Source: Candidatus Limnocylindrales bacterium (lineage in GTDB: Bacteria; Chloroflexota; Limnocylindria; Limnocylindrales; CSP1-4). Taken from it: a stretch of 64,000 bases of DNA. Position 1 is the first letter of the stretch. Each line of letters begins with the position of its first letter. Positions 2,836-61,798 of the stretch are shown in pieces. Both the position numbers and the translations under genes were made by a program. The notes beneath the pieces were generated by a model. It searched no databases. It was not told the origin of the DNA and was given only the letters and a program-made list of their open reading frames with translations. The stretch spans positions 11,729 through 75,728 of the forward strand of contig JBBQFS010000001.1 in assembly GCA_038322255.1 (NCBI GenBank), given 5' to 3'.

Positions 2836-2842
2836 CCGGGGT

Positions 2843-44546: not shown

Positions 44547-44843
44547 ATGTGTCGAAGCATCAGGACCCTCCGCCATCAGGACGACGCCGCGACGACCGGC
44601 GAGGTCGAGGCCGCCGCGCGCCAGTACGTGCGCAAGGTCAGCGGCTTCCGCCAGCCGTCGGCCCGCAACACCGAGGCCTTCGAGGCTGCCATCGCCGAGA
44701 TCGCGGCCGCCTCGCAACGGCTCATCCTGGCCGTCGGCGGCGACGTCGAGCCCGGGCCCGATCGACGCCCGCCGTCCCGACCCCGGATCGAGCGTGAGCA
44801 CGATCACGGGCACGTCCACCCGCACGCCGCCAGCCCCGCCTGA
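44547..44843 (+). CDS. DUF2277-like small protein (98 aa)
   Basis: MCRSIRTLRHQDDAATTGEVEAAARQYVRKVSGFRQPSARNTEAFEAAIAEIAAASQRL resembles the conserved MCRNI...AA.QYVRK.SG...PS N-terminus of DUF2277 proteins, as I recall it. Confidence 0.5.
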   Translation: MCRSIRTLRHQDDAATTGEVEAAARQYVRKVSGFRQPSARNTEAFEAAIAEIAAASQRLILAVGGDVEPGPDRRPPSRPRIEREHDHGHVHPHAASPA

Positions 44844-44871
44844 CCGCCCGCAACCCGGGCCGCTGACGAGG

Positions 44872-45762
44872 ATGCGCGCGTCGCCCGACGAGGCAGCCCA
44901 GATACCGCTCGCCCCCGAGCTCCCGACCCGCCACGTCACCAGCACCAAGATCGTCGCGATCCGCGGCTCCGAGCTCGAGGTGCGCGACGACCTGGTCGTC
45001 GGCGAGGAGCCCCTCGAGATTCTCGCCGCCGGTCCCCGCCAGGAGGCGGTCCAGGTGGCGGTCACGATGCGCACCCCCGGCCACGAGGAGGACCTCGCGA
45101 TCGGCTTCCTCATGAGCGAGGGCCTGCTCGCGGGCAACGAGGTCAAGAGCGTTCAGTACGGCGACCCCGGGGTCATGGCCGAGCCCGACGACAGTGTCCT
45201 CGTCCGCCTGGCTCGGCGTTTCGACCCATCGCTCGTGGCCCAACGGAACTTCGTGGCCACGGCCTCGTGCGGCATCTGCGGCAAGGCCTCCATCGACGAC
45301 GTCGCGATCCGGTGCGAGCCGCTGCCAGAGAACCTGCCCGTCATCGCCCGGTCAGTCATTGCGTCGCTGCCGGATTCGCTGCGCGCGGCGCAGGCAGCCT
45401 TCGACCGAACCGGCGGGCTCCACGCGGCGGGCCTGTTCGAGACCGACGGTCGCGCCGTCGCCGTTCGTGAGGACGTGGGCCGACACAACGCGCTCGACAA
45501 GCTGATCGGCTCGCGATTGCGGGCCCGCGAGCTGCCGCTCTGGGATCGGCTTTTGATGGTTTCGGGCCGGGTGAGCTTCGAGATCGTGCAGAAGGCCGCG
45601 ATGGCCGGCATCCCGATGATCTGCGCCGTGTCGGCCCCGTCCGATCTCGCGGTCCGGCTCGCAGATCGCCTCGGTGTGACGCTCATCGGCTTCCTGCGCG
45701 GCGACGGCTTCAACGTCTACACCCACGACGGCCGCGTCGACCTTCGCGACCTCATGCGCTGA
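44872..45762 (+). CDS. fdhD: Formate dehydrogenase accessory sulfurtransferase FdhD
   Basis: Motifs VTMRTPGHEEDLAIGFLMSEGL, ATASCGICGKASID, DVGRHNALDKLIG and MVSGRVSFEIVQKAAMAGIPMICAVSAPS. Confidence 0.85.
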   Translation: MRASPDEAAQIPLAPELPTRHVTSTKIVAIRGSELEVRDDLVVGEEPLEILAAGPRQEAVQVAVTMRTPGHEEDLAIGFLMSEGLLAGNEVKSVQYGDPGVMAEPDDSVLVRLARRFDPSLVAQRNFVATASCGICGKASIDDVAIRCEPLPENLPVIARSVIASLPDSLRAAQAAFDRTGGLHAAGLFETDGRAVAVREDVGRHNALDKLIGSRLRARELPLWDRLLMVSGRVSFEIVQKAAMAGIPMICAVSAPSDLAVRLADRLGVTLIGFLRGDGFNVYTHDGRVDLRDLMR

Positions 45763-46829: not shown

Positions 46830-47879
46830 TCAGTCCCGGCGTGCGTTCGTGAACTCGAAGCCGAAGCGGCCCTTGATGCAGAGGTGGCCTTCGGTTACGG
46901 TCGAATCCATCGGCGAGGTGACCTTCACGATCGTGTTGTCCTGGACGTGGAGGTCGATCGCGCAGCCGACGCCGCAGTACGGGCAGATCGTCTGGGTCAT
47001 CGTCTGGGCCGACTCGTCCCACGTGCCTGCCTCGCGCATGTCGTACTCCGACTTGAACATCAGCGCACCCGTCGGACAGACGCCGATGCAATTGCCGCAG
47101 TAGACGCAGGCCGAATCGGGCAGGGGCGCGTCCCACTCCGTGGAGATTCGGGCATCAAAGCCGCGGCCCGCGACGGCGATCGCGAACGTGTTCTGGGCGT
47201 CCTCGCCACAGGCCTCGACGCACTTGTAGCAGAGGATGCACTTCGAGTAGTCACGCACGTAGAGGTTGTTATCGACCTTCACCGGCTGGGCGACGGACTC
47301 GGCCACGGACGCTTCTGGGCCGGCGGGGGCGTGGTGATGCCCGGGATCACGGTCATCGCGTTCGTGCGCGGCGGCGGAGCGAGCCGGCGGCCCGAATCTC
47401 AAAGGGTCGGCGCCGTACCGCGCCGCGTAGCGGGCCGCGTCGCCATCGGGCTCGCGAGGACCGGCGAGCGAGAGGTCGACCGACGAGCCGAGGAACTCGA
47501 GCACCACCTTCCGCGAGTGCTGGACGCGCTCGGATTCGGTCTGGATCTCCATGCCCTCCTCGACGCGGCGCGAGCACGCGGGAGCGAGCACGCGCGCCCC
47601 CTTGACCTCGACGACGCACACGCGACAGACGTTCACGGGAGTGAGATTCTCGAGGTAGCACAGGGTCGGGATGTCGAGGCCCTGGGCCCGGCAGGCGTCG
47701 AGGATGGTCGAGCCGGCGGGCACTTCGACCGCGACGCCGTCGATCGAGAGGCTGAGCCGCGCTGGGAGGGCGGCCGGCGGCGGGCCGGGGATGCGCGTCG
47801 CCCGGGCCGGCGGCGTCGTGTAGACGATGCCTGGTGGCGCCGTGTCCACCGCTCCCGGTTGCTGGGGGTCGTGGGTCAC
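46830..47879 (-). CDS. Formate dehydrogenase alpha subunit, N-terminal electron-transfer fragment (2Fe-2S ferredoxin-like, 2x[4Fe-4S] and the MopB-type CPYCGVGC cluster region), ending where the catalytic domain proper begins
   Basis: A GTG at 47879 overlaps the fdsB TGA (GTGA). Motifs: 2Fe-2S region LSIDGVAVEVPAGSTILDAC...CYLENLTPVNVCRVCVV; ferredoxin CxxCxxC (CILCYKCVEAC, CVYCGNCIGVCP); and TICPYCGVGCAIDLHV...GHLCIKGRFGFEF. Stop after ...FTNARRD. 349 aa. Confidence 0.8.
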   Translation of the reverse strand: MTHDPQQPGAVDTAPPGIVYTTPPARATRIPGPPPAALPARLSLSIDGVAVEVPAGSTILDACRAQGLDIPTLCYLENLTPVNVCRVCVVEVKGARVLAPACSRRVEEGMEIQTESERVQHSRKVVLEFLGSSVDLSLAGPREPDGDAARYAARYGADPLRFGPPARSAAAHERDDRDPGHHHAPAGPEASVAESVAQPVKVDNNLYVRDYSKCILCYKCVEACGEDAQNTFAIAVAGRGFDARISTEWDAPLPDSACVYCGNCIGVCPTGALMFKSEYDMREAGTWDESAQTMTQTICPYCGVGCAIDLHVQDNTIVKVTSPMDSTVTEGHLCIKGRFGFEFTNARRD

Positions 47880-49834
47880 AGCGCTGCCAGCTCCGGTTGG
47901 CGGATGGCCGACTCGATCGCCGACGAGGCCGTTTGCCCGAGCCCGCAGATGCTCGCGTCGCGCATCGCCCGGCCGATGTCGGCCAGGAGCACCAGTTCCT
48001 CCTCCCGGGTCCGGACCGCGACGCCGTCTGCCAGGCGCGAGAGGAGCTCCTCCTGGCGAACCGTGCCGACCCGGCAAGGCACGCACTGGCCGCACGACTC
48101 GTCGCGGAAGAACGCGGCGATCCGGCGCAGCGTACCCACGAGATCGGCGGTCTCGTCGAAGACCATCACCACGCCAGACCCCAGGGTCGCATTGATCTCG
48201 CGCGTGCCCTCGAACGTCAGTGGCGTGGCGAGCACCTCAGGCCCGACGAAGACGCCGGCCGCGCCGCCGAGCAGGATCGCGCGGATGGCGCGCCGCTCGG
48301 GCACGCCACCGCCCAGCTCGATGAGCTGGCCCAGGGTCGTCCCGAACGGGACCTCGTACACGCCTGCGCGCCCGACGTTGCCCGACAGGCAGAACAGCTT
48401 CGGCCCGGTTGAGCCCTCGCTGCCGACCTTCGCGAACCGGGCCCCGCCGCCGGGGCCGTCCTCGAGGATCGCGAGCACGTTAACGAGCGTCTCGACATTG
48501 TTGACCGCCGTCGGCTTGCCAAACAGCCCGAACTCGACGGGGAAGGGAGGCTTGTTGCGCGGCTCGCCGCGCTTACCCTCGATCGACTCGAAGAGCGCCG
48601 TCTCCTCGCCACAGATGTAGGCGCCCGCGCCGCGCCGGACCTCGATGTCGAAGGCGAGGCTCGATCCCGCGACCGAGGCGCCGAGGTAGCCGGCGGCTCG
48701 CGCCATCTCGATGGCGCCACCGATGCGCGATTCAGCGAGCGGATATTCGCCACGGATGTAGAGGTAGCCCTTGGACGCGCCCGTGGCGAAGCCCTCGATC
48801 GTCATGGCCTCGACAACCGCGAACGGGTCGAGCTCCATGAGCACGCGATCCTTGAACGTGCCCGGCTCCGACTCGTCGGCGTTGCACACGACGTAGTGGG
48901 GCTGCGCAGGCTGGGCGGCGACCGCGGCCCACTTGCGCCCAGTTGGGAAGGCCGCGCCGCCGCGGCCGAGGAGCCGGCTGTCGGTGACCTCGCCAAGCAC
49001 GGCATCGGCGCCCATTGCCAGCGCCTGCTCGAGGGCGCGGTAGCCGCGATGGGCGACGTAGTCGTCGAGCGAGCTGGGATCGGCCAGGCCGACGCGGCGG
49101 AGCAGCAGGAGCTGCGGCTGGCCGGTCTGGGGCACCGAGGCGTGCGCAGCGTCCCGGAAATCCGGTGCGGGCGGTGCGTGGCCATTGGTTTTGGCAGCCG
49201 CGGACCCTGTCCACTGGGCATTCGCGGCCGACGGGGCGTTCGCCGCCGAGGGGGCCGCGACCGCGCGCTCGAGCCGAGCGATCACGCCCGCGGCATCGAT
49301 CGGCGCGGCGGTCTCCCGGGTCGGCTGCTCGCCGGCGATCGTGAACATCGCGGCCGGCGCGAGCTCGCACAGCCCTAGGCACGGGCTGCGCAGCCAGCCG
49401 ATTCGGCCGTCGCCCGAGGGGGCTCCGGCGGGCCCGAGCGTCCGGCCCAGGTCGGCGCACAGCTCCTCGGCCCCGGCAAGACGGCAGGCGATGTCATCGC
49501 AGACGTGGGCGATGGCCGGCGGCCGCGGCTTCGTGGTGAAGAGGGCGTAGAACGTGGCGACACCATAGGCCTCGGCGGGCGGTACCGACAGGCGCCGGCA
49601 CACGTAGTTCAGGCCCGGCTGCGTGATCTGGCCGACCCGATCCTGCAGCGCGTGCAGCGCCGGCAGGAGGAGGTCGCGCCGGCTCCGGGCTTCGTGCCCG
49701 CCTCTCGCGACGTGCCCCTCGGTCATCGAGTCGCGCCCGCCGCCGCGCCAGCCGCTGTCGGCCGGCCCGAGCACCGCATCGACCGCCGCGCGCTCCCCGG
49801 GGGAAGCCAGCGGCCCGATGACGTGAAGGTCCAT
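47876..49834 (-). CDS. NAD-dependent formate dehydrogenase beta subunit: fused NuoE-like (2Fe-2S thioredoxin-like) and NuoF-like (FMN, NAD, 4Fe-4S) domains
   Basis: N-terminal NuoE/FdsG-like region (LLPALHALQDRVGQI...EAYGVATFYALF...RSPCLGLCELAPAAMF). NuoF motifs (GAGAYICGEETALFESIEGKRGEPRNKPPFP, CGQCVPCRVGT). Confidence 0.85.
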   Translation of the reverse strand: MDLHVIGPLASPGERAAVDAVLGPADSGWRGGGRDSMTEGHVARGGHEARSRRDLLLPALHALQDRVGQITQPGLNYVCRRLSVPPAEAYGVATFYALFTTKPRPPAIAHVCDDIACRLAGAEELCADLGRTLGPAGAPSGDGRIGWLRSPCLGLCELAPAAMFTIAGEQPTRETAAPIDAAGVIARLERAVAAPSAANAPSAANAQWTGSAAAKTNGHAPPAPDFRDAAHASVPQTGQPQLLLLRRVGLADPSSLDDYVAHRGYRALEQALAMGADAVLGEVTDSRLLGRGGAAFPTGRKWAAVAAQPAQPHYVVCNADESEPGTFKDRVLMELDPFAVVEAMTIEGFATGASKGYLYIRGEYPLAESRIGGAIEMARAAGYLGASVAGSSLAFDIEVRRGAGAYICGEETALFESIEGKRGEPRNKPPFPVEFGLFGKPTAVNNVETLVNVLAILEDGPGGGARFAKVGSEGSTGPKLFCLSGNVGRAGVYEVPFGTTLGQLIELGGGVPERRAIRAILLGGAAGVFVGPEVLATPLTFEGTREINATLGSGVVMVFDETADLVGTLRRIAAFFRDESCGQCVPCRVGTVRQEELLSRLADGVAVRTREEELVLLADIGRAMRDASICGLGQTASSAIESAIRQPELAAL

Positions 49835-50166: not shown

Positions 50167-50478
50167 TGACCCGCCAAATGGGCACGCCTTGAGCAATTTC
50201 GGGGCTAAACCAGGGCTAAGCCCGGCTGAAGGCCGTGCACGTCCCCTCGGCCCGTAGCGGCGGCGCCGGATTCACGCTCAGGCTGCCGGCCGACGACCAT
50301 TCGCGACACGGTGCCACAGCGCGCGCAGGTGGCTAGGGCTCAGGTAGACCCGATTCTGATCACGGGGTGTGCATCCTCAGGCTCTAGATCCTTCCCACCC
50401 GGTTTTTCGCGGAGCCTCCTCGAATCAGCGGTACCGGGCGGCGCGTTCCACCTGCTTCGCGGGCCGTGAAGGCGCAGC

Positions 50479-50799
50479 TCAGCCGCCTGGCGCCTGGTAG
50501 CTGGGGTGCATGGAACGAGCCTTGTCGACCTCGTCCGCCGTCAGGAGGACCGTCGTCACGATGTGGGCCGCGCCGGTTGTCGCGACAGTCGTGGACAGCG
50601 CCGCCGCCGCAGCGTTGTCGGGCAGCTCGACGATGAGGATGACGTCGTACTTCCCGAACGACCAGTACATCGCCTCGAGCTTCCCGCCGAGGCTGCTGGC
50701 GGAGGCCTCGAGGGCCTTGATCCGGGTTGCCGCGCCGTCCTTCATCACCCCGGCGAGGCCCGCCTGGGTGTAGTTCGCCGAGAACAGGAAATGGGCCAT
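50479..50799 (-). CDS. GYD domain-containing protein
   Basis: GAGGTG RBS, then ATG. MAHFLFSANYTQAGLAGVMKDGAATRIKALEASASSLGGKLEAMYWSFGKYDVILIVELPD is a typical GYD-family sequence. Confidence 0.75.
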   Translation of the reverse strand: MAHFLFSANYTQAGLAGVMKDGAATRIKALEASASSLGGKLEAMYWSFGKYDVILIVELPDNAAAAALSTTVATTGAAHIVTTVLLTADEVDKARSMHPSYQAPGG

Positions 50800-50858: not shown

Positions 50859-52784
50859 TCAGGCCGGAATCGGCGCCGGGAGCTTCTCGACGCGGATCGC
50901 CGTCGCCTTGAACTCGGCCGTGCCTGACTTCGGGTCGGTAGCGTCGATCGTCAGGACGTTCGTGGCGACCTCATCCTGGAAGTGCAGGGTCATGAAGGTC
51001 AGGCCGGGACGCAGGCTGTGATCGATCCGGACCGGCGCCTCGATCGAGCCGCGACGCGAGGTTATCCGGACGCGCTCGCCGTCGATCAGCGAGAACCGCG
51101 CGGCGTCCTCGGGCGAGATGTCCAGCGACTCGCCGCGCCGCAGGGGCGACGTGTAGCCGCTCGACTGGACGCCGGTGTTGTACGAGTCGAGCCGCCGGCC
51201 GGTCGTGAGCCGGATCGGAAAGTCGTCGTCGAGCTTGTCGACCGGCGGGTCGTGGTCGACCGCGACGAACGGCGCCCGCAGCCCCGGCACCGGGTCCTCC
51301 CAGAGGCGCGAGTGCAGGAACAGCTCGCCCGGATGGGTCTCGTCCCAGCACGGCCACTGGATTCCGCCGAGCGACTCGAGCCGGGCGTAGGTCATGCCGC
51401 GATGGACGGGCGACAGCGACCGCAGCTCGTCCCAGGTCCTCTCGGCCGAGGCTTCGCCCCAGTCGCTGCCCATCCGCCGGGCAAGCTCGTAGATGATCCA
51501 GAGGTCCTCGCGTGCCTCGCCCGGTGGGTTCATCGCCCTGCGGACGCGCTGGACGCGGCGCTCCGAGTTCGTGACCGTCCCCTCGGATTCGGCCCACGCC
51601 GCGGCGGCCGGCAGCACCACGTCGGCGATCTGGGCCGTCGCGGTCAGCAGCAGGTCCTGCACGACGAGGAAATCGAGGCCGCCGAGGAGCCGCTTGGCCC
51701 GCTGCTGGTCGGCCTCGGACTGGACGGGATTCTCGCCGATGACGTAGACGGCGCGGAGCTCGCCCTCCTCCATGGCGTCGAACATCTGGGAGAGGTGCCA
51801 GCCGCGCCGCGCCGGGACCGTGACGCCCCAGGCTTCGTCGAACTTCGATCGGAGGGCCTCGTTCTCGACGTACTGGAAGCCAGGGAGTCGGTCGGGGAGG
51901 GCGCCCATGTCGCCGCCTCCCTGGACGTTGTTCTGGCCCCGGAGCGGGTTGAGGCCGCTGCCGTACTTCCCGACATGCCCGCAGAGCAGCGCGAGGTTGA
52001 TCAGCGCCAGCACGTTGTCGACCGCGTTGTGGTGTTCGGTGATGCCGAGCGTCCAGCAGATCATCGCCTTGTCGGCGGTCGCGAAGGCGTGGGCCAGCTC
52101 CTGGATCGCGGAGGCGGGCACGCCCGTCTCGCGCTCCGCGTACTCGAGCGTGTACGACTCGACCTTGGCCCGGTAGGCCTCGAAATCTGACGTCGCGCGC
52201 TCGATGAACTCGGTGTTCGCCAGGCCGGCGTGGATGATCTCGCGCCCGATGGCGTTCGCGAGGGCGATGTCAGACCCGACGTCGAGCCCCAGCCAGACGT
52301 CGGCCCACTCGGCCGAGCTCGTCCGGCGCGGGTCGACCGCGTAGAGCCGGGCGCCGTTGCGGACGCCGCGCAGGAGGTGGTGGAAGAAGATCGGATGCGT
52401 CTCCCGGGCGTTGCTGCCCCAGAGCACGATCAGGTCCGTCTCTTCAGCCTCGCGATATGAGCTGGTTCCGCCACCAGCGCCGAACACGGTCGCCAGACCG
52501 GCGACAGATGGCGCGTGTCAGGTGCGGTTGCAGCTGTCGATGTTGTTGCTGCCCAGGACCTGCCGGGAGAGCTTCTGGGCCGCGAAGTTGACCTCGTTGG
52601 TCGCCTTCGAACAGCTGAAGATCCCAATCGGGGTTCGCGCGTCCGCGGTGGCCTTGGCGGCCAGCGCGGCGCGGAATCCGGCGACGGTCCGGTCGAGCGC
52701 CTCGTCCCAGGTGGCCGGGCGGAGCTCGCCGCCCTTCGTGTCGCGCACGAGGGGCTGGGTCAGGCGAACGTACGACTTCGGCAA
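50859..52784 (-). CDS. Formate dehydrogenase alpha subunit, molybdopterin (Mo-bisPGD) catalytic fragment, selenocysteine-containing (in-frame TGA at 52518-52520)
   Basis: GGAGGA RBS 4 nt before the TTG at 52784 (MPKSYVRLTQPLVRDTKGGELRPATWDEALD...). Continues ...LGSNNIDSCNRT-TGA-HAPSVAGLATVFGAGGG..., matching the FdhF/FdsA Sec/Cys active-site context (…NN.D.CAR.U.HGPSVAGL). The downstream 540 aa are a full MopB domain plus the molybdopterin-binding C-domain. 641 codons if TGA is decoded. Confidence 0.8.
52489..52505 (-). other. Putative bacterial SECIS hairpin (GUCGCC-GGUCU-GGCGAC) 12 nt 3' of the in-frame UGA
   Basis: On the mRNA: UGA-CACGCGCCAUCU-GUCGCCGGUCUGGCGAC. A 6-bp stem with a GGUCU apical loop, similar in position and loop sequence to the E. 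coli fdhF SECIS apical stem-loop. Confidence 0.55.
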
Positions 52785-52988
52785 GGGTCCTCCGTGCCTT
52801 CTCGTGGCCGTCGATCGGCCGCGTTCGTCGCCGGCTGCTGCCGGTCCGGCCAGTGTAGCGAGGCACCCGCCGAGTGCCGGGTGCCAGCTCGGGCCGTCTC
52901 GGCGGAGAGGCCCCGGCCCGTCCGGCCCGCCCGGTTGGTTGTGGCCAGTTCGGACCGGCTCGGACGTCCGTGGCGATTTTTCCGCCAC

Positions 52989-53753
52989 CTAGGTCCGCCT
53001 GGGGCCACCGACGCGCCGCGCGACGATGTTGAGGCGGACGTAGTCGAGCTTCGCCTCGGGCATGCGCGCGGCGACCGCCTGCACGAAGGGCTTCCGCTCT
53101 CCGGGTGGCAGCTCGGCGAGGAAGGTCCGAAGGCAGACCGTCTCGAGGAACGACTCGAAGGGCTCGCCGGGATCGAAGTGCGTCGGCTCGTCGGAGAGCC
53201 AGGTCTCGATCTCGACGAAGCCGCTCCTCTCGAGCCGCGCCCGCGTGGCCTCGGGCGTCTCGAAGCGGTGCTCCCGGTGGAAGCCTGGATGGACCTCGAG
53301 GGCGGTGTCGAGCAGCGCGGCGACGTTGCCGGCGCCGCCGCACTGGGCCACGAGCCAGCCGCCGGGACGCAGGACGGCGGCGAGATTCGCAAAGAGCGCG
53401 TCGTGATCGAGGACCCAGTGGAAGGTCGCCGTCGACAGGATCGCGTCGACGTTGGCGGCGAGCGGGAGCCGTAGCGGGCGGGCGAGGTCCGCCTCGACGT
53501 AGTCCACCTGCTCGCCGAATCTCGCCAGCCGTCCACGCGCCTCCGCGAGCATCGACGCCGACGCGTCGAGCGCGACCACGCGCCCGTGCGGCAACCGCCC
53601 GAGCAGCATCTCGGTGACGCGTCCCGTGCCGCACCCTGCGTCGAGGACCGTCTCGTCGCCGTCGAGCGGCAACCGATCGAGGACCGCCGCGCCCCAGCGC
53701 GCCTGCGGGTCGGCGACCCGATCGTACGCTCTCGCATTCCAGTCGCCGGTCAT
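52989..53753 (-). CDS. Class I SAM-dependent methyltransferase (trans-aconitate methyltransferase Tam-like)
   Basis: MTGDWNARAYDRVADPQARWGAAVLDRLPLDGDETVLDAGCGTGRVTEML parallels the Tam N-terminus (DWN..Y, V.D.GCG.G). Confidence 0.8.
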   Translation of the reverse strand: MTGDWNARAYDRVADPQARWGAAVLDRLPLDGDETVLDAGCGTGRVTEMLLGRLPHGRVVALDASASMLAEARGRLARFGEQVDYVEADLARPLRLPLAANVDAILSTATFHWVLDHDALFANLAAVLRPGGWLVAQCGGAGNVAALLDTALEVHPGFHREHRFETPEATRARLERSGFVEIETWLSDEPTHFDPGEPFESFLETVCLRTFLAELPPGERKPFVQAVAARMPEAKLDYVRLNIVARRVGGPRRT

Positions 53754-53760
53754 GGCACGA

Positions 53761-54288
53761 CTATGGCATCACCCAGCGCGCCGGTGGCACCTCGACCGCG
53801 AGGACGGTTGCGTTCCACGGCGGTGGCGTCGATCCCGGGATGTCGAGGTCGGTCGGCAAGTCGAGCCCGAGCACGACGACGGCAACCTTCTCGGAACCCG
53901 AGAAGCTGACCCAGGCGTGCATGAACTGGCCAGGTCGCACGACGGGGCCGTAGCACGGCGGCATCGATCCGCCACCCGGCCAGAACACCGCGCAGAAGAA
54001 GGGCCCCGGCTCGATGGCGATCCGGTCGATCGGCAGCCGGACCGGGGCGATCGCGAGCTCGACGGCCATCGTCGCCGAGGGACATGGGTCGCCGGAAAGG
54101 GTCGATGGCAACGGCAGCGGCTCGATGCGGCAGGCGACCAGTCGGGTCGAATGCAACGGACCCGCGGGGGTTGCGTCGGAAGCCGGCCGACCGAATCCCA
54201 GGGCGACCGCAAGGGCGACGGCCAGCGGAACCGTGATCCCGGCAAGCAGCACGGCGATGCCGAGCCACCCACCGCGCCGAGAGGTCAC
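53761..54288 (-). CDS. Hypothetical membrane-anchored protein (175 aa)
   Basis: A GTG at 54288 overlaps the selD TGA stop (GTGA). N-terminal TM (GGWLGIAVLLAGITVPLAVALAVALGF). No family recognised. Lies 8 nt upstream of the methyltransferase start. Confidence 0.45.
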   Translation of the reverse strand: MTSRRGGWLGIAVLLAGITVPLAVALAVALGFGRPASDATPAGPLHSTRLVACRIEPLPLPSTLSGDPCPSATMAVELAIAPVRLPIDRIAIEPGPFFCAVFWPGGGSMPPCYGPVVRPGQFMHAWVSFSGSEKVAVVVLGLDLPTDLDIPGSTPPPWNATVLAVEVPPARWVMP

Positions 54289-55391
54289 GCGAGGGCGACG
54301 GCCGCGAGTGTCGCGGCTTCGACGCGGCCGATCGTCCAGCTGGACACGCCTGCAGCACGTAGCGCGCTTTCGACCGCTGGCGCCCCGCGCGCGGGAATGG
54401 CGGCGAGGAGACCGCCCGAGGTTTGCGGGTCGTGGGCGAGGGTGACGACTTCTCCCGAGACGTCGCCGCCAACGGTCAGGGCCGGCGCGACGAACCGGCG
54501 GTTGTTGGCGGCCCCGCCGGTCTCCACGCAGTCACGCGCGAGGTCGAGGGCGCCATCCAGCGCCGGGAGCGCCGACGCGTCGAACACGAACTTCGTTCCT
54601 GAGGCTCGAGCCATCTCGAGGCCGTGGCCCAGGAGGCCGAAGCCGGTGACGTCGGTCGCCCCGCGGATGCCGTGCGCGACGAGCACCTCCGCTGCCGCGC
54701 GGTTCAACGCGCGCATGGAGTCGACGGCCGCCGCGAGCTCGTCGTCGCTCGTCCGACCCTGCCGGCGCCCGCTCACGAGCAGCCCGGTCCCGAGCGGCTT
54801 CGTGAGCATCAGGAGGTCGCCCGGCCGCGCGCCTCCCTTGCGCAGCAGGTGATCGGGCGAGGCAACCCCGACAACGGCCAGGCCGTATTTCGGCTCCTTG
54901 TCCCGGATCGTATGGCCGCCTGCGAGAAGCCCCCCGGCTTCGCGGACCTTCGATGCCGCGCCGTCGAGGATCGCCCGGAACGCGTAGCTCGGCATGTCCT
55001 CCGGGATCGCGGCGACCGAGAGCGCGAACAGGACCCGGCCGCCCATCGCGAAGACGTCCGACAGGGCATTCGCCGCCGCGATCTCGCCGAAGGTGCGAGG
55101 GTCGTCGACGATCGGGGGGAAGAAGTCGAGCGTCCCGATGACGGCGACGCCGGGCGCAACCAGGTGGACGGCGGCGTCGTCCGGCGGGTCGAGCCCGGCG
55201 ATGAGGCCGGTCGAGCCCTCGGTCGCCGACCGGTGGTCGTGACCGTAAACCGCGTCAACGTCGTCGATGCCGAGCCCGGCGAGCGCCTCGGCCAGAGCGT
55301 CAGCCCCGAGCTTCGCCGCACAGCCGCCGCACGTCGTCAGCTCCGTCAAACGGATGGGCGGGAACGTCAGCTCGGGAAGCTGGGACGGCAT
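54285..55391 (-). CDS. selD: Selenide, water dikinase (selenophosphate synthetase)
   Basis: ATG at 55391. IRLTELTTCGGCAAKLG (Cys form), DDAAV..., GTLDFFPPIVDDPRTFGEIAAANALSDVFAMGG, GGHTIRDKEPKYGLAVVGV and TDVTGFGLLGH align with E. coli SelD. The 5' part of the track ORF (to 56084) is rejected. Confidence 0.9.
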   Translation of the reverse strand: MPSQLPELTFPPIRLTELTTCGGCAAKLGADALAEALAGLGIDDVDAVYGHDHRSATEGSTGLIAGLDPPDDAAVHLVAPGVAVIGTLDFFPPIVDDPRTFGEIAAANALSDVFAMGGRVLFALSVAAIPEDMPSYAFRAILDGAASKVREAGGLLAGGHTIRDKEPKYGLAVVGVASPDHLLRKGGARPGDLLMLTKPLGTGLLVSGRRQGRTSDDELAAAVDSMRALNRAAAEVLVAHGIRGATDVTGFGLLGHGLEMARASGTKFVFDASALPALDGALDLARDCVETGGAANNRRFVAPALTVGGDVSGEVVTLAHDPQTSGGLLAAIPARGAPAVESALRAAGVSSWTIGRVEAATLAAVALA

Positions 55392-55490
55392 GTGGGCGAT
55401 GGTAGGACGCAGCCCATTGACCGTCGGCGCGGTGGCCGCGACGATGCCGCGAACCCGCACTTCTGACGCGGGCCCTTGGGAGGGCAGGCG

Positions 55491-56507
55491 ATGACCGACC
55501 TCGCGACCGAGCGCGACCTTGTGACGGTCCCGAAAGTGGAGCTGCACATCCACCTGAACGGCTCGATCACCGAGGCGACGGCGTCCGAGCTGGCGCGCCG
55601 CCACGGTGCCGATCCAGCGGAAACCCTGATCCTGCGCGACGGCCGCTACCCCGGCAGCTACCCGGACTTCAAGGCGTTCCTCGACGTCTACATGGCCGCG
55701 AACGCCTTCGTTCGGACGCCGGAGGACCTGGAGTTCGTCGCGGCCGAGTTTGCCGAGGGGCAGGCCGCCCAGAACATCGTCTACTCCGAGGCGATCTTCA
55801 CGGCGATGATCTATGCCCGGAACGGGATGGATCCGACGGCGATGTGGGCCGCGCTCCAACGGGGCCTCGCAGCTGCCGGGCCTAACACGCGCATTGGACT
55901 GGTGGTCGATGCGATCCGCGACTTTGGCCGGGCTGAAGGGGACGCCACGCTCAAACTCGTCGAGGGCGCTGACGCCCCGATCGTCGGTCTCGGCCTGACC
56001 GGAATCGAGGGCACGGTTCCGGTCGAGGAGTTCCTTTCTTTCCGGGCCGCTGCGCGACGGCTCGGGCTCGGTTTCGAGGTCCACGCCGGCGAGATGGGCC
56101 CGCCTGAAAGCATCGTCGAGTCACTCGATGTGCTGGAGGCGGATCGGATCGGCCACGGCGTCGCGGCCATCGGCGACTCGGCACTCCTGGAGCGACTGGT
56201 GCGCGACCAGGTCGTGCTCGACGTCTGCCCATCATCGAACATCGGGGTGGGTCTCTTCCCGTCGCTCGACGCACACCCAGTGGCGGAATTTTGGAAGGCC
56301 GGCGTGAACATGACGATCTCCAGCGACGACCCGCCGTTCATGAGAACGACCCTGACTGATGAGCTCCGCCACGTCGTCCGACTGGCCAGGCTATCGCGGA
56401 ACGACCTCGCTGAGCTCCAGCGGAGAGGCGCACGTGCGGCGTTTGCCAGTGATGCGACGCAGGGCGAGCTGCTGGCGCTGATCGACGAGTGGGCGGGCGG
56501 CACTTGA
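55491..56507 (+). CDS. add: Adenosine deaminase
   Basis: GGGAGGG RBS, then ATG at 55491. Metal-binding motifs (VELHIHLNGS, EVHAGE, SSDDP). Confidence 0.85.
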   Translation: MTDLATERDLVTVPKVELHIHLNGSITEATASELARRHGADPAETLILRDGRYPGSYPDFKAFLDVYMAANAFVRTPEDLEFVAAEFAEGQAAQNIVYSEAIFTAMIYARNGMDPTAMWAALQRGLAAAGPNTRIGLVVDAIRDFGRAEGDATLKLVEGADAPIVGLGLTGIEGTVPVEEFLSFRAAARRLGLGFEVHAGEMGPPESIVESLDVLEADRIGHGVAAIGDSALLERLVRDQVVLDVCPSSNIGVGLFPSLDAHPVAEFWKAGVNMTISSDDPPFMRTTLTDELRHVVRLARLSRNDLAELQRRGARAAFASDATQGELLALIDEWAGGT

Positions 56508-57253
56508 CGAGCGAGGTGTCGCTGGCAGCCCGGAGGCGGGTGCGGATCACCGACACGGTCCTGGGCGGCGGCGATGCCGCGGTCGAGGCCTACGTCGTCG
56601 AACGGCCCGACGAGCCCGTCGTGGCCGGGATCCTCTTCCTGCACTGGCTCGGCGACCACCGCAGCGACCGGACGCAGTTCCTTTCGGAGGCCCGCGAGCT
56701 CGCCACGTTGGGCGTTCGAAGCGTCCTGCCCGCCGGTCGACTGCCCTGGGTGCCGGAACCGGTGAACGCTGCCACCGATATCGCCAACATCGAGGCCGAG
56801 CAACGGCGGCTCGGAGCCGCGCTCGAGGCACTCACAAGTGGGCTGCCCAAGGGCGCGCCGATCGGCCTGGTTGGCCACGACTTCGGCGCGATGCACGGCC
56901 TGCTCCTGGCCGCGCGCCAGCCGCGGTTCAGGGCCGCCGTCCTCATCGGGGCTACGCCGCGCTGGGGCGACTGGTTCCTGCGGTTCTGGCAGGTCGACGG
57001 CGACCGGTTCGACTACCTCCGCAGGCTTTCCCCAGTCGACCCGATCGAGGCGGCGCGTGACCTCAAGGCCACAGTGCTCTGGCAGTTCAGCGAGCGTGAC
57101 TTCTTCATCGCCCCGATGTCCGCGGTCGAGCTGGCGAAGGCCGCGCCGGGTGAGCCGGTGATCGAGTGGTATCCGGCCGATCACGCGATGCGGAGCCCGA
57201 AGGCGCGCCGGTCGAGGATCGCGTTCCTCCGTCGGGAGCTGCACCTTCGCTGA
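56504..57253 (+). CDS. Alpha/beta-hydrolase fold protein (dienelactone hydrolase-like)
   Basis: A TTG at 56504 overlaps the add stop (TTGA); alternatively GTG at 56489. Nucleophile elbow GLVGHDFGA. Weak family assignment. Confidence 0.5.
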   Translation: MTSEVSLAARRRVRITDTVLGGGDAAVEAYVVERPDEPVVAGILFLHWLGDHRSDRTQFLSEARELATLGVRSVLPAGRLPWVPEPVNAATDIANIEAEQRRLGAALEALTSGLPKGAPIGLVGHDFGAMHGLLLAARQPRFRAAVLIGATPRWGDWFLRFWQVDGDRFDYLRRLSPVDPIEAARDLKATVLWQFSERDFFIAPMSAVELAKAAPGEPVIEWYPADHAMRSPKARRSRIAFLRRELHLR

Positions 57254-57324
57254 CAGCGCGCAGCGTCGTCACGCGGCCGGAGGCCGACGGACACTCCGGC
57301 GCGAGACCTTCACTACGATGTTCC

Positions 57325-57421
57325 GGGAGCGGAGGGGTCCCGGTGGGCTTCCTCGTCTTCAAAACGAGTGGCGCGGCGCTCGGCGTCGCGCGGTGGGTTC
57401 GACTCCCATGCGCTCCCGCCA
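57325..57421 (+). tRNA. selC: tRNA-Sec (selC), anticodon TCA
   Basis: 97 nt. The acceptor stem GGGAGCG(G)/(G)CGCTCCC has 7 bp plus a G-G at position 8. D-region CCCGGTGGGC. Anticodon loop CTTCAAA with TCA at 57359-57361. Long variable arm. T-arm GGTGGGTTCGACTCCCAT is identical in loop to E. coli selC. Discriminator G and CCA are encoded. Sits immediately upstream of selA. Confidence 0.8.
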
Positions 57422-57470
57422 GCGCGGCTGCACCAGCGAGGACGATCGAGCCGATGACCGGATCGAGCCG

Positions 57471-58922
57471 ATGACGAGAGAACGGCGGCCCCCCAGCGTC
57501 GACGCGATCCTGCGTGCCGCGGCGCCGGGCCTCGACGGGCGCGACCACGAGGCGGTCGTCCTCGTGGCACGCGAGGTCGTGGCGGGGGAGCGGGCGCGGC
57601 TCGCGGGCGGCGGCCCTGGGGCGGCCGCGGCGAAGCTCGCCGACGAGCTGCGCGAACGCCTCGAGGCGCTCGAGGGGGGAAGCGATGAGGCAGGCGCGCG
57701 GGCCGCCGGCTCCGGGCTTCAGCCCGTCATCAACGCGACCGGCGTGATCCTGCACACGAACCTCGGGCGCGCGCCGTGGCCCGACGCGGCGATCAAGGCA
57801 GGCCAACTGGCCGCGAGCGGTCCCTCGATGCTCGAGCTCGATGCCGACTCGGGGCGCCGGGGCCGGCGCTTCCGGGCGGTCGAGGATGAAGTCGTCGCAT
57901 TGACCGGCGCCGACGACGCGCTGGTCACCAACAACAATGCCGCCGCGGTTGCGCTTGCGGTCGGGCTCGCGGGGCGCGGCGGCGTTGCGGTCTCGCGTGG
58001 TGAGCTCGTCGAGATCGGTGGCGGCGTCCGGATTCCGGAGATCGTGCGCCGCGCGGGCGCCCGCCTCCTCGAGGTGGGCACGACGAATCGCACCCGCGTC
58101 GCCGACTTCGAAACGGCCCTCGTCGAAGGCCGCGCGAAGCTCGTCTTGCGCGTCCATCCCTCGAACTTCACCCAAACCGGGTTCGTGGAATCGCCGGACG
58201 ACGCGGAGCTCGCGGCGGTGGCCCACCGTCACGGGGCCCTGGTGGTCGACGACCTCGGGTCGGGCGCCCTACTCGACACGGCGCGATTCGGTCTCGCCCA
58301 CGAGCCGATGCCGCGCGAGCGCCTCGAAGCGGGTGCTGACCTCGTGACATTTTCCGGCGACAAGCTCGTCGGTGGGCCTCAGGCCGGGATCATCGCTGGC
58401 CGCGCCGATCTCGTGGAACGGCTGCGGCGCGACCCCCTGGCCCGCGCGATGCGCCCGGACAAGGTCGTCCTCGCGGCGCTGGCTGCGACGCTCAGGCTGT
58501 ACCGAGCCGGGGTCGCGCACACCGCCATCCCGATCTGGCGCCAGATTGCGGCACCACTCGACGGGCTCGAACGACGCGCGACCGACGTCCTCGCGGCGCT
58601 CACCGGCGGCGCGTCCCTGCTCAACGCCGACGCCTCGCCCGGGACCCGCGGCGTCACGCTCGGCGTCGAGCCGACCGAGTCGACCATCGGCGGCGGCTCG
58701 CTGCCCGGGCAGACGCTCGCGTCCTGGGCAGTCGTCATCGTCGGTCCGCCGCCGCAGCGCCTGCTCGCCGCGCTTCGGGACGGGCACCCGCCGGTGATCG
58801 GCCGGGTGGTCGACGACGCGGTCGTGCTCGACTTTCGAACGGTAGAGCCACGCGACGACAAGCGATTCGCCGACGCCGTTCGGGCAGCGATTCTGTCGAC
58901 CTCACCGCCCCTGCGGGGTTGA
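57471..58922 (+). CDS. selA: L-seryl-tRNA(Sec) selenium transferase
   Basis: ATG at 57471 (MTRERRPPSVDAILRAA...). PLP-lysine region FSGDKLVGGPQAGIIAG. INATGVILHTNLGRAPW. Confidence 0.9.
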   Translation: MTRERRPPSVDAILRAAAPGLDGRDHEAVVLVAREVVAGERARLAGGGPGAAAAKLADELRERLEALEGGSDEAGARAAGSGLQPVINATGVILHTNLGRAPWPDAAIKAGQLAASGPSMLELDADSGRRGRRFRAVEDEVVALTGADDALVTNNNAAAVALAVGLAGRGGVAVSRGELVEIGGGVRIPEIVRRAGARLLEVGTTNRTRVADFETALVEGRAKLVLRVHPSNFTQTGFVESPDDAELAAVAHRHGALVVDDLGSGALLDTARFGLAHEPMPRERLEAGADLVTFSGDKLVGGPQAGIIAGRADLVERLRRDPLARAMRPDKVVLAALAATLRLYRAGVAHTAIPIWRQIAAPLDGLERRATDVLAALTGGASLLNADASPGTRGVTLGVEPTESTIGGGSLPGQTLASWAVVIVGPPPQRLLAALRDGHPPVIGRVVDDAVVLDFRTVEPRDDKRFADAVRAAILSTSPPLRG

Positions 58923-58929
58923 CACCAGC

Positions 58930-59145
58930 ATGGACGCGACCACGGCGTTCGGCGTCGCGGCCCTCAGCTTCATGATGCTGATGTATGCGCTGGAACGGCG
59001 CGGGCGCGTCTTCGTCCTCGCATTCGCAGCGGGGTGCGCCCTCTCGAGCGCCTACGGATTCGCGTCTGGCGCCTGGCCGTTCGGCGTTGTTGAAGCCATC
59101 TGGACGGTCATCGCGCTCCGTCGCTACGCCACGGACCCGAGCTGA
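58930..59145 (+). CDS. Hypothetical small membrane protein (71 aa, 2 predicted TM helices)
   Basis: ORF between selA and selB. Its TGA overlaps the selB ATG (TGATG). No RBS upstream. No family recognised. Confidence 0.35.
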   Translation: MDATTAFGVAALSFMMLMYALERRGRVFVLAFAAGCALSSAYGFASGAWPFGVVEAIWTVIALRRYATDPS

Positions 59146-61076
59146 TGCATGACCCCAACGTCGGGCCGACCGTCGTCATCGGCACCGCCGGCCACATCGA
59201 CCACGGCAAGACGAGCCTCCTGCGCGCGTTGACCGGCATCGACGCCGACCGGCTGCCCGAGGAGCAGGCCCGGGGCATGACGATCGACGTCGGATACGCC
59301 CATCTCACGTTCGGCGATGGCGTCGAGCTCGACTTCGTCGACGTGCCGGGGCATGACCGCCTGATCGGCAACATGCTCGTCGGAGCGGGCGAGGTCGACG
59401 CGGCGATGGTCGTCGTCGCCGCCGACGATGGGCCTCGGCCGCAGACGCTGGAGCACCTGCAATTGCTCGACGCGCTCGGCATCGACGAGGGTCTCGCGGT
59501 GGTGACGAAGGTCGATGCGGTCGACCCGACGAGAGTCACGGAGGTCGTGAGCGCCGTGACCGCGCTCCTCGCCGTGACATCGCTCCGTGGTTCTCCCGTT
59601 CTCCCGGCATCGTCGGTGACAGGAGAGGGGATCGAGGCGGTTCGAACGGCGCTTCGATCTGTGCGTGACGGGGTTGCTGCGCGATGGTCGGCGGTTGGGC
59701 TGCCACCTCACGGCGCGGGCCCGCTCCGGCTCGCAGTCGACCGCGCCTTCGCGGTCAAGGGTCGGGGCGCGGTTGTCACAGGGAGCCTTCGCGGCGGCGC
59801 GCTGGAATCCGGAGCGACGCTCCGGCGCGAGCCAGGCGGTGAATCGATCCGCATTCGCGAGGTCCAAGTGCACAGCCATGCGCGGGATCGTCACGACGGC
59901 GGCCGGACGGCGCTCAACGTGGTGGGGCTGCCGGTCGAGTCCCTACGGCGTGGCGACGTGCTGACGAGCGGACCCGGTGTGCTCGGGAGCGATCGGATCC
60001 TCGTCGAGCTTCGGCCGCCAGCCCGCGTTGGGCCAGCGACGGCTCGTCCACCGAAGGTCGGCGCTCGACTCCGACTGCACGTCGGCACCGATAAGGCCGA
60101 GGCGACGCTCCGGCTGGTTCGCGCGCGCCCGAGTGCGGCGATCCTGACCCTGGAGCGACCAGTTGCGACATTCGTGGGCGATCGAGCAATCCTTCGGGAG
60201 CCAGCGTCGGGGGACGTCGTCGCCGGCGTTCGCGTCCTCGACCCGCGACCGCCTCGGGGCCCTTCGCGACGTCGCTTGACCGCTGCACGCCTTCAGGTCC
60301 TGTCGGCGGCGGTCGAAACGGGCGACGTCAGCGCGACTTGGTCGGCTCGCGTCGAGTTGCACGGGGCCATCGCGCTGGCGTCATCGCTTGACGGCGGAGG
60401 TCGAGGGCCGACGGCGCCGAATCTGGCGCTCGCGGCCGACGTGCGAACCGCGCTTGAGGAGGCCGCCCTCGAGGCCGTGACCGCGCAGCATCGCGAGGCG
60501 CCACTTCGTCCGGGTCTGGCACTCCCGCGCGCGCGCGCCGCGCTCCTCCGGCGGCTCCGCTCCCTCGCGACCATCGAGCGCCGCGACGCCGAGGCTGCGG
60601 GATCGGCCGTTGCCGGCGTGCTCGACCACCTCGTCGAGCAGGGCTTGCTTGTCCGGCAGGGCGAGGCGCTGCGCGATCCGTCCCGCGGCTCAGAGCTGCC
60701 GCCGGACCTGGTCGCCGCGATGGATCGGCTCGAATCAGCCCTCGCGATCGCCGCGCCGCCGCCGCTCGAAGCCGCGGCGCTCGAGGCTGGCTGCCCAACC
60801 GAGGGCATTCGCGCGCTCCAGGCCGCCGGGCGCATTGTTCGACTCGGGCCGGATCTCGCCTGGGCGACGCCGACGTTCCACCGCCTCGCGGCCGTCGCCC
60901 TCGACCGATCGCGCCAGGCGCCGCTCACGCCCGCGGCCTACCGGGACGCGACCGGGACCAGCCGGCGCTACGTGCTCGCCATCCTCGAGGACCTGGATCG
61001 GCGCGGAATCCTGCAGCGAACCCCCGAGGGCCACATTCCCGGCCCTCGGGCTCCGCGGGCGGAGCCGGTCGCGTGA
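59145..61076 (+). CDS. selB: Selenocysteine-specific translation elongation factor
   Basis: G-domain motifs (IGTAGHIDHGKTSL, DVPGH, TKVD). Long C-terminal winged-helix region. 643 aa. Confidence 0.9.
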   Translation: MHDPNVGPTVVIGTAGHIDHGKTSLLRALTGIDADRLPEEQARGMTIDVGYAHLTFGDGVELDFVDVPGHDRLIGNMLVGAGEVDAAMVVVAADDGPRPQTLEHLQLLDALGIDEGLAVVTKVDAVDPTRVTEVVSAVTALLAVTSLRGSPVLPASSVTGEGIEAVRTALRSVRDGVAARWSAVGLPPHGAGPLRLAVDRAFAVKGRGAVVTGSLRGGALESGATLRREPGGESIRIREVQVHSHARDRHDGGRTALNVVGLPVESLRRGDVLTSGPGVLGSDRILVELRPPARVGPATARPPKVGARLRLHVGTDKAEATLRLVRARPSAAILTLERPVATFVGDRAILREPASGDVVAGVRVLDPRPPRGPSRRRLTAARLQVLSAAVETGDVSATWSARVELHGAIALASSLDGGGRGPTAPNLALAADVRTALEEAALEAVTAQHREAPLRPGLALPRARAALLRRLRSLATIERRDAEAAGSAVAGVLDHLVEQGLLVRQGEALRDPSRGSELPPDLVAAMDRLESALAIAAPPPLEAAALEAGCPTEGIRALQAAGRIVRLGPDLAWATPTFHRLAAVALDRSRQAPLTPAAYRDATGTSRRYVLAILEDLDRRGILQRTPEGHIPGPRAPRAEPVA

Positions 61077-61798
61077 ACCGACGGCCCGACCGACGGCCCG
61101 ATGGATCGCCGGATCCTCCAAGCGTGTCGGCCCCGCTCCGGCAGGCCGTCACGGCGATCGTGCTGGCAGGCGGTCGTTCGTCGCGGTTCGGCGGCCCGAA
61201 GCTCGTCGTCGAGCTTGACGGCGCGACCCTCCTCGACCGCGCCGTGCGCGCGGTCCAATCCGTCGCCACGTTTGTCATCGTCGCTGGTCCGGAGCCCGCG
61301 GCGCGGTTGGGTTCGTCCACCCCGCGACGTCGCCTTGGCGCTGCTGGCGACGCCCCGGCTTCGTCCGTCCGGTTCGTCGACGACGACCAGCCATTTGCCG
61401 GCCCGCTCGCGGCGCTCGCCGGCGCGCTCCGCGAGACCTCGACCGAGCTCGCCATCATCGTCGGTGGCGACATGCCGGGCCTCGTGCCCGCCGTGCTCGC
61501 CGCGATGCTGGACAACCTCGCGTCGGACCTCACTGTCGATGCGGTCCACCTCGCCGGCGTGACAGAGCCCCCGCATCGGGAGGTCCTCCCGCTCGGGCTC
61601 CGAGTCGCACCGGCCGCGAAGGCCGCCGTCGCGCGCCTGGGAAACGGCGATCGCTCGCTCGTGCGCCTCCTTGACCGCCTTCGGACCGTCGAGATTCCGG
61701 CCACCGAATGGTTGGCTCTCGACCCGGCCGGCCGGACCCTCCTGGACGTCGACGAGCCGAGAGATCTGGAGCGTTGGGACGCAGGCGAGATTCGCTGA
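61073..61798 (+). CDS. mobA: Molybdenum cofactor guanylyltransferase
   Basis: A GTG overlaps the selB TGA (GTGA). N-terminus TAIVLAGGRSSRFGGPKLVVELDG is the MobA NTP-transferase signature. Confidence 0.8.
   Translation: MNRRPDRRPDGSPDPPSVSAPLRQAVTAIVLAGGRSSRFGGPKLVVELDGATLLDRAVRAVQSVATFVIVAGPEPAARLGSSTPRRRLGAAGDAPASSVRFVDDDQPFAGPLAALAGALRETSTELAIIVGGDMPGLVPAVLAAMLDNLASDLTVDAVHLAGVTEPPHREVLPLGLRVAPAAKAAVARLGNGDRSLVRLLDRLRTVEIPATEWLALDPAGRTLLDVDEPRDLERWDAGEIR

Follow-up and report, generated by a model that had tools for sequence, protein, structure and literature searches.

A 64-kb stretch of contig JBBQFS010000001.1 from a Candidatus Limnocylindrales bacterium (hereafter the window, meaning this whole stretch) very probably contains a resident chromosomal selenocysteine (Sec)-decoding locus of a high-GC, Limnocylindria-like member of the Chloroflexota, situated beside the gene whose UGA it would decode, namely that for the catalytic module of a formate dehydrogenase (FDH). 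All four components of the Sec pathway, selD, selC, selA and selB, are present as the original prediction for this DNA had claimed, the three proteins passing the cut-offs of their equivalog models and the tRNA its Rfam threshold. Genes were assigned by Pfam domain scans and by NCBIfam equivalog models with their own cut-offs, and the tRNA was tested with ARAGORN and with Rfam RF01852 (gathering score 47 bits).

The selD gene (54285..55391, minus strand), encoding a predicted selenophosphate synthetase with AIRS (PF00586) and AIRS_C (PF02769) domains, was matched over its full length by TIGR00476 (318.5 bits, cut-off 125). Its coding region begins at the ATG at 55391 and specifies 368 amino acids; a 599-amino-acid maximal open reading frame (ORF) was rejected as selD in favour of this true start. 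As read from the translation (TTCGGCAAKLG), the enzyme is of the Cys form and not the Sec form, with a Cys three residues before the catalytic Lys, and by eye we take these two residues to be the equivalents of C17 and K20 of E. coli. The product of selA (57471..58922, plus strand), a 483-amino-acid selenocysteine synthase (PF03841, 2.5e-113), matched TIGR00474 with 439.5 bits against a cut-off of 267.9 over model positions 3–454 of 455, including the N-terminal tRNA-binding part, and carries the pyridoxal phosphate (PLP)-lysine motif FSGDKLVGGPQAG. SelB, the Sec-specific elongation factor (59145..61076, plus strand, 643 amino acids), scored 280.2 bits with TIGR00475 against a cut-off of 242.25; the GTPase motifs GHIDHGKT, DVPGH and TKVD are present, and GTP_EFTU (PF00009), the SelB beta-barrel (PF25461) and the C-terminal winged helix (PF09107, residues 591–631) were all detected, with PF09106 matching weakly.

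The fourth component, selC, was called by ARAGORN as tRNA-SeC(tca) at 57323–57421 and matched RF01852 at 57325–57417 with 69.2 bits, whereas RF00005 was not matched. As G73 and the CCA end are encoded in the genome at 57418–57421, the mature tRNA-Sec spans 57325–57421 on the plus strand, exactly the interval originally predicted, with selA 49 nucleotides (nt) downstream. The tRNA has the UCA anticodon, a 6-bp D-stem, a long variable arm and the 13-pair acceptor/T helix of its class. For comparison we used related loci, of which L001–L005 were drawn from a SelB scan of species representatives and L041 and L042 are closer contigs. The tRNA-Sec occupies the same position upstream of selA in L001, L002, L003 and L005, whereas in actinobacterial loci it is found downstream of selB instead. 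A G–G mismatch at acceptor pair 8 is shared by all five tRNA-Sec copies from Chloroflexota-labelled metagenome-assembled genomes (MAGs), i.e. those at 57325–57421 in the window, 8433–8529 in L001, 8456–8552 in L002, 2727–2823 in L003 and 8453–8551 in L005. Acceptor pair 6 covaries among these five copies (C–G, U–G and U–A), and an actinobacterial copy (L006) has eight canonical acceptor pairs.

Weak secondary matches to DgaE (54 bits) and to EF-Tu and eIF2-gamma (~100–128 bits) might be taken to mean that SelA and SelB are paralogues, namely a DgaE-like PLP lyase and an EF-Tu- or IF2-gamma-like GTPase, and that a tRNA-Ser or tRNA-Leu with a long arm has been taken for tRNA-Sec; the original prediction had itself named paralogous families and an unsupported Sec tRNA as grounds on which it would fall. 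The tRNA and paralogue tests bearing on it were both run and they refute it, leaving it with next to no probability: the SelA and SelB models score 439 and 280 bits, above their cut-offs, whereas those for DgaE, EF-Tu, eIF2-gamma and ThiL all fall far below their own; the SelB-specific winged-helix and beta-barrel domains are in place; and the tRNA, with its UCA anticodon, is recognized by the Sec family and not by the general one.

The gene that this machinery would serve is fdhA-C (50859..52784, minus strand, 641 amino acids), which encodes a molybdopterin catalytic module with matches to PF00384 and PF01568 only. Translation of 50859–53000 on the minus strand is interrupted by a single in-frame TGA, at 52518–52520, which corresponds to Sec residue 89. 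It lies in the context NIDSCNRT*HAPSVAGL (asterisk, UGA), the His that follows and the Arg of LRGQNNVQG are both kept, and this is the canonical Sec–His active-site context of FdhF-type enzymes. A candidate selenocysteine insertion sequence (SECIS) hairpin, GUCGCC-GGUCU-GGCGAC (52489..52505, minus strand), begins 13 nt after the UGA and forms in both the minimum free energy and centroid structures, and the window, L001, L005, L041 and L042 share one and the same 17-nt core sequence. The GGUC-containing apical loop stands in what we take to be the same register after the UGA as that of the E. coli fdhF SECIS, with G23 and U24 in the loop.

No Fe4S4 domain was found by Pfam in FdhA-C itself. That domain is carried instead by a second protein, FdhA-N (46830..47879, minus strand, 349 amino acids; Fer2_4, Fer4 and Molybdop_Fe4S4), which comprises a 2Fe-2S domain, two 4Fe-4S domains and, at residues 294–345, the Molybdop_Fe4S4 (FS0) domain, and which ends shortly afterwards, following CIKGRFGFEF. 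Residues 23–344 of FdhA-N align with residues 7–303 of the Rhodobacter capsulatus FdsA (6tg9/6tga), and residues 23–346 with 7–305 of 9wxb_B, and FdhA-C continues the alignment, its residues 7–634 matching FdsA 308–933, with T. kivui FdhF and E. coli FDH-H as its best PDB matches. Similarly, FdhA-C alone reaches 640.6 bits with TIGR01591, below the cut-off of 666.25, over model positions 53–672, and FdhA-N covers positions 1–50 (53.5 bits). Between the two alpha genes, upstream of fdhA-N, lies fdhB (47876..49834, minus strand; PF01257, PF01512 and PF10589; nuoF_fam 1.5e-128), encoding a NuoE–NuoF fusion, or diaphorase module, with 2Fe-2S, FMN/NAD-binding and 4Fe-4S domains and 88% identity to its L042 counterpart. 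Judged from these sequences, all the domains and catalytic residues of an FDH alpha subunit are present, distributed over two polypeptides in a variant architecture, and the enzyme is predicted to be an NAD-linked FDH of the FdsABG/FDH1 type with its alpha subunit naturally split after FS0 and with Sec in place of Cys.

The same split is found in L001, L005, L041 and L042, and the catalytic genes of L001 and L005 start at the same N-terminus (LPKSYVRLT/LPKKYTRLT); the examined flanks of L001 and L005 yielded no homologue of FdhA-N or FdhB. When FdhA-N was compared with a representative library, matches of at least 50% identity were mostly short, a search dominated by metagenomic fragments and hence giving a rough picture. 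Fused homologues of at least 770 amino acids were mostly seen at 47% identity or below in that search, with one at 50%. Literature searches, which were not exhaustive, returned nothing relevant on a split FDH alpha subunit or on Limnocylindria FDH. We put forward, as a tentative proposal that is somewhat more likely to fail than to hold, that an alpha subunit of the FdsA type has here undergone a natural fission not described before, in which the Fe-S/FS0 and Sec–molybdopterin modules are separate, permuted in order and placed in different transcription units. This form is apparently common throughout a lineage that is abundant in soil and freshwater.

A GYD-domain gene (50479..50799, minus strand; PF08734, 2e-23) lies directly downstream of fdhA-C. 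It occupies the same position in L041 (11696–12016) and L042 (11719–12039), but not in L001 or L005, and its product may be an FDH-associated small subunit. Upstream of fdhB, the 645-nt spacer at 49835–50479 is free of any clean ORF but holds, at 50087–50163, ~2.6 tandem copies of a 26-nt unit (97% matches). An S8 peptidase gene occupies the position of this spacer in L041 and L042; we considered whether the spacer might be a remnant of such a gene and rejected this, as there was no match at the protein level and only the region upstream of fdhB was conserved with L042.

Gene callers cut the FDH catalytic gene into pieces of 88 and 542 amino acids, and the original prediction had likewise spoken of Sec-FDH fragments. 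Taken together with a catalytic gene that has no Fe4S4 domain and with the repeat-bearing spacer in the FDH region, this could be viewed as a Sec trait in decay, the FDH being a fragmented pseudogene and the sel genes relics. We consider this very improbable and largely refuted, as the fragments belong to a single intact gene whose sole interruption is a UGA at the canonical Sec position, followed by the conserved hairpin. In addition, FdhA-C is 90–94% identical to the L041 and L042 proteins over its full length, the Fe4S4 and Fe-S domains that it lacks are found intact in another conserved gene, whose end coincides exactly with the beginning of the catalytic one, the split recurs in the four relatives named above, and all of the sel ORFs are intact and score above their equivalog cut-offs. 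The same truncation runs through the databases: more than 100 FdhA-C homologues, with 85–100% identity, are all 522–557 amino acids in length (most 542). In the entries (P0001–P0120), which bear the name ‘YjgC’ or ‘formate dehydrogenase major subunit’, the start has been set at the first GTG that follows the Sec codon, so that a selenoprotein is systematically mis-annotated.

Two further genes link the locus to FDH maturation. Immediately after selB, the plus-strand gene at 61073..61798 encodes a MobA-like nucleotidyltransferase (PF12804, MobA-like NTP transferase, 8e-26), probably, on the basis of its sequence, a molybdenum-cofactor guanylyltransferase. The stop codon of selB and the start of this gene overlap by 4 nt (GTGA, 61073–61076), as the original prediction had also noted, and a 4-nt overlap is kept at the equivalent junctions in L001, L002, L005, L041 and L047; a MobA-like gene follows selB in L001–L005, L041 and L047. 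This conserved overlap suggests that Sec insertion may be translationally coupled to molybdenum-cofactor guanylylation. The second gene, fdhD (44794..45762, plus strand; PF02634, 2e-65), encodes an FDH sulfurtransferase that passes two equivalog cut-offs (NF001943, 280.6 bits against 269; TIGR00129, 166 against 140.9) and is 90% identical to the syntenic gene of L042. A DUF2277 gene precedes it at 44547–44843. The original prediction had placed fdhD as flanking the sel genes; it is indeed present, but 8.5 kb from selD.

On the minus strand, selD is followed by a gene that we term orf175, by a SAM-dependent methyltransferase gene, by fdhA-C (204 nt further on) and by the GYD-domain gene, and 99 nt separates this array from a divergent plus-strand array of adenosine deaminase (ADA), hydrolase, selC, selA, orf71, selB and MobA-like genes. 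Spacing and overlaps point to at least four transcription units on the two strands, which would be (1) selD–orf175–methyltransferase–fdhA-C–GYD on the minus strand, (2) ADA–hydrolase–selC–selA–orf71–selB–mobA on the plus strand, (3) fdhB–fdhA-N on the minus strand after the 645-nt spacer, and (4) DUF2277–fdhD on the plus strand. Unrelated genes, for the methyltransferase, ADA, the hydrolase and an EEP-family nuclease/phosphatase, are interspersed among the sel and FDH units. The link between Sec insertion and FDH maturation that the original prediction had drawn is supported, but its term ‘supra-operon’ is too strong for such an arrangement.

The selD/selC–selA–selB–mobA layout recurs in nine related loci (L001–L005, L041, L042 and L047–L048), labelled Chloroflexota or Limnocylindrales where they are labelled at all, and because of this recurrence the clustering is not a matter of chance. 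SelB identity is 52–56% for L001–L005 (Chloroflexota/Limnocylindrales MAGs) and ~37% for Gaiellaceae and Thermoleophilia species representatives. By tblastn, selD (minus) and selA–selB–mobA (plus) were found in L001, L002, L003 and L005, and selA–selB–mobA only in L004; the FDH catalytic gene lies nearby in L001 and L005, as does an MFS gene, and the methyltransferase gene was seen in L005. The closer contigs keep the gene order of the window across ~20 kb, with the S8 peptidase and a few other genes inserted into the shared order in both. In L041 the order is MFS, membrane protein, mobA, selB, small ORF, selA, hydrolase, selD, methyltransferase, FDH (88- and 542-amino-acid pieces), GYD, NuoEF and Fe-S subunit; that of L042 is the same from selA onwards and continues with fdhD, DUF2277, a histidine kinase and a beta-eliminating lyase. 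Identities to L041 are 62% for SelB, 71% for SelA and 81% for SelD, and 74% for the hydrolase, 71% for the methyltransferase and 63% for the EEP-family protein; those to L042 are 85% for both SelA and SelD, 87% for the histidine kinase and 90% for FdhD. The sel genes and their non-sel neighbours therefore diverge from the window over the same range, with SelD at 81–85% in the two contigs. In a neighbour-joining tree, SelB of the window groups with L041, L047 and L001–L003, apart from Actinomycetota, in a clade whose members are labelled Chloroflexota or are unlabelled.

These data bear directly on the proposal, made in the original prediction, that a single-locus arrangement is a hallmark of laterally mobile Sec traits. 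That heuristic is a reasonable one given the literature, in which compact sel clusters have been linked to horizontal transfer in Photobacterium profundum, where a Sec-type selD lies beside selAB (PMC1273633), and in mycobacteria (PMC13449736), but it is not borne out here. That the cluster is a mobile Sec/FDH island acquired recently by this genome is, in our view, unlikely. Beyond the precedent, such an origin would fit the codon usage of selB and the MobA-like gene, the most atypical in the window, and the fact that, outside the Chloroflexota-labelled clade, the nearest SelB proteins recovered are those of Actinomycetota at ~37% identity. In L048, a large serine recombinase gene and a rolling-circle Rep gene (336–3697) adjoin selD, the mark of a mobile element inserted there and not in the window. 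Against an island, synteny in L041, L042, L001 and L005 continues past the sel genes to take in housekeeping neighbours that have diverged equally, SelB falls inside the lineage’s own clade, and GC content is flat at 0.70–0.73 (0.68–0.75 per 2 kb across the window; the DNA is ~71% GC). No integrase, transposase, recombinase, phage or conjugation domain was found by Pfam among the called genes of the 64-kb window, no duplicate of the tRNA-Sec 3′ end was seen with up to three mismatches allowed, and no att-like repeats were detected, direct repeats in the 44–64 kb region being at chance level. The resident-locus reading carries with it a probable vertical inheritance within the lineage, which an ancient transfer into the ancestor of that lineage may have preceded.

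Several points weigh against the view of a resident, functional Sec locus. First, selB and the MobA-like gene have the lowest GC content at third codon positions (GC3) in the window (z = −2.8 and −2.3), and their codon likelihoods (z = −2.5 and −2.1) are, together with those of two unrelated genes, the least typical, which alone could suggest a foreign origin. Their low GC3 recurs, however, in three of four relatives (L001, L005 and L041, but not L002), and because of this recurrence we regard it as a property of the genes, better explained by low expression or fast evolution than by recent import. Secondly, the MobA-like protein fails every MobA equivalog cut-off, its best NCBIfam match being MobA (NF001457) with 66.4 bits against 164, so that of the mobA gene originally predicted the presence and position stand, whereas the identity is MobA-like only. 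Thirdly, the SECIS hairpin was recognized by eye and by folding, not with a calibrated model, and it does not surpass shuffled sequences in folding energy (z = 0.16); as the hairpin is invariant it offers no covariation, and this invariance, together with the very GC-rich DNA, means that neither covariation nor folding energy backs it statistically. Finally, the operon structure is drawn from spacing and overlaps alone, the relatives were baited with SelB, FDH or orf71, so that genomes of the lineage without the trait are not visible, and both Sec incorporation and expression are predictions.

Between selA and selB lies orf71 (58930..59145, plus strand), a 71-codon gene whose small product has, as judged from its sequence, two hydrophobic stretches resembling transmembrane segments. 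Its stop codon overlaps the start of selB by 1 nt (TGATG, 59143–59147), an overlap that had been correctly predicted, and its GC3 of 0.86 is coding-like. The protein has no Pfam or NCBIfam match, yet it is 80% identical to a 76-amino-acid ORF in the same slot of L041, where it is more conserved than SelB or SelA, and the slot is also filled in L047–L049. The family has more than 6000 members, all without annotation, and in four of four other contexts sampled the 69-amino-acid members lay near or directly after a PrmA-like methyltransferase gene with no sel genes nearby. We therefore set aside orf71 as a Sec-pathway factor, given this large family and its sampled members elsewhere without sel genes. 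It is a real gene, but probably one that travels as a passenger in the selAB operon; a weaker suggestion is that it might serve selenium use as an accessory particular to this lineage.

The remaining passengers differ in their conservation. The ADA gene (55491–56507, plus strand; PF00962, 3e-66) and an alpha/beta-hydrolase gene (56489–57253, plus strand; weak Abhydrolase/DLH matches) lie in that order between selD and selC, and whereas the hydrolase is kept in this slot in L041 and L042, ADA is missing from it in both. The ADA gene has a GC content of 0.67, the second-lowest among the called genes of the window, with a GC3 z of −2.0, and may be a local insertion. On the other strand, the GTG start of orf175 overlaps the selD stop codon at 54285–54288. 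Its 175-amino-acid product, which matches no family, is hydrophobic over a stretch at the N-terminus; in L042 the homologue adjoins the methyltransferase gene instead, and in L041 there is no homologue.

The rest of the window is of a housekeeping character, with RNase PH, Ham1, glutamine synthetase, fumarase, ResB, UDP-glucose dehydrogenase and two-component systems recognized by Pfam. A membrane-protein gene without family match (61913–62464, plus strand) contains a near-perfect 33-nt tandem duplication (62340–62405), by which a Pro/Ser-rich segment of the protein’s C-terminal tail is repeated. A promoter and terminator scan, uninformative at 71% GC, returned no promoter-like site and one terminator-like site outside the locus, and an Rfam scan of 50–64 kb at the E-value level (E≤1) gave chance matches only, with no SECIS, riboswitch or leader family. 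In-frame-UGA scans of the window showed no second selenoprotein gene, a weak test whose thresholds overlooked even the genuine UGA of the FDH gene, since GC3 falls across the SECIS; their output consisted of antisense-frame artefacts and two ordinary stop/start junctions.

On the basis of these components, we propose the following scheme. SelD would make selenophosphate, the housekeeping seryl-tRNA synthetase would charge tRNA-Sec with serine, and SelA would convert the product into Sec-tRNA-Sec. SelB–GTP would then bind both Sec-tRNA-Sec and the GGUCU-loop hairpin 13 nt past UGA-89 in the fdhA-C mRNA and deliver the tRNA to the ribosome, so that Sec would come to serve as Mo/W ligand in an NAD-linked FDH of the cytoplasm. 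This enzyme would be assembled from FdhA-C (with Sec and bis-molybdopterin guanine dinucleotide, bis-MGD), FdhA-N (with the 2Fe-2S and 4Fe-4S clusters and FS0) and FdhB (the NuoE–NuoF fusion), with the guanylylated cofactor supplied by the MobA-like protein, whose gene is apparently coupled in translation to selB, and the sulfido ligand by FdhD. The two divergent arrays, with selD at the head of one and selC–selA–orf71–selB–mobA within the other, would share the 99-nt control region, and two further FDH units would complete the system.

The immediate gain is one of annotation, in that an uncultured, high-GC Chloroflexota lineage appears as a user of Sec and more than 100 database entries, most of 542 amino acids, are seen to be stumps left by automatic gene calls that cut FDH at the Sec codon. 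In addition, the compact sel/FDH layout of this lineage looks inherited and not mobile. In the split FDH alpha subunit the Fe-S wire and the catalytic Mo/Sec module are naturally separate, which may interest engineers of CO2-reducing FDHs; were the docking of the catalytic module non-covalent, its pairing with alternative electron-transfer partners would be conceivable in principle. The current understanding of Sec decoding is left unchallenged by the locus.

Of the known systems, the mycobacterial locus, with selD and selC–selA–selB beside a selenoprotein fdhA gene (PMC13449736), is similar in arrangement. In both, selC lies immediately upstream of selA–selB and near selD, CCA is encoded, the nearby and presumably sole selenoprotein is an FDH, and the host is aerobic and of high GC content. 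Unlike the mycobacterial locus, the present one has a divergent selD with the hydrolase (plus ADA) between selD and selC, a small membrane-protein gene between selA and selB, and a MobA-like gene apparently coupled in translation to selB. The tRNA-Sec differs from the mycobacterial one, described as having 7/6 geometry, by the G–G mismatch at acceptor pair 8, and the FDH differs in being FdsA-like and split. Moreover, horizontal transfer was inferred for the mycobacterial cluster (PMC13449736), whereas no such signal is seen at this locus.

With E. coli the locus shares the same four components (selA, selB, selC and selD) and the U-H-x-P-S-V-A-G-L context, and FdhA-C aligns with residues 61–688 of E. 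coli FDH-H (1aa6) at 3.6e-136. In E. coli, unlike here, selC and selD are dispersed, and FdhF carries its own Fe4S4 domain and serves the formate-hydrogenlyase complex, not a NuoEF-type diaphorase. In cofactor content the predicted enzyme resembles the NAD-dependent FdsABG/FDH1 of R. capsulatus (6TGA) and Methylorubrum extorquens (7E5Z), with 2Fe-2S and 4Fe-4S clusters, FS0, bis-MGD and a NuoE/NuoF-type module. FdhA-N and FdhA-C together align end to end with FdsA (residues 7–305 and 308–933). The beta subunit of M. extorquens FDH1 is also a NuoE/NuoF-type fusion, and the Mo/W ligand in the solved FdsABG/FDH1 enzymes is Cys. In contrast, the alpha subunit is here divided after FS0 between two genes, which are permuted in order and belong to separate transcription units, Sec would be the Mo/W ligand, and, unlike in FdsABG, no FdsD gene was recognized, a GYD-domain gene following the catalytic gene. 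The components and the SECIS context thus belong to the E. coli paradigm and the arrangement is mycobacteria-like, whereas the selB-coupled MobA-like gene, the embedded hydrolase and small membrane-protein genes, the G–G mismatch of tRNA-Sec and the split FDH alpha subunit are lineage-specific, the last of these being the only element that could rate as novel.

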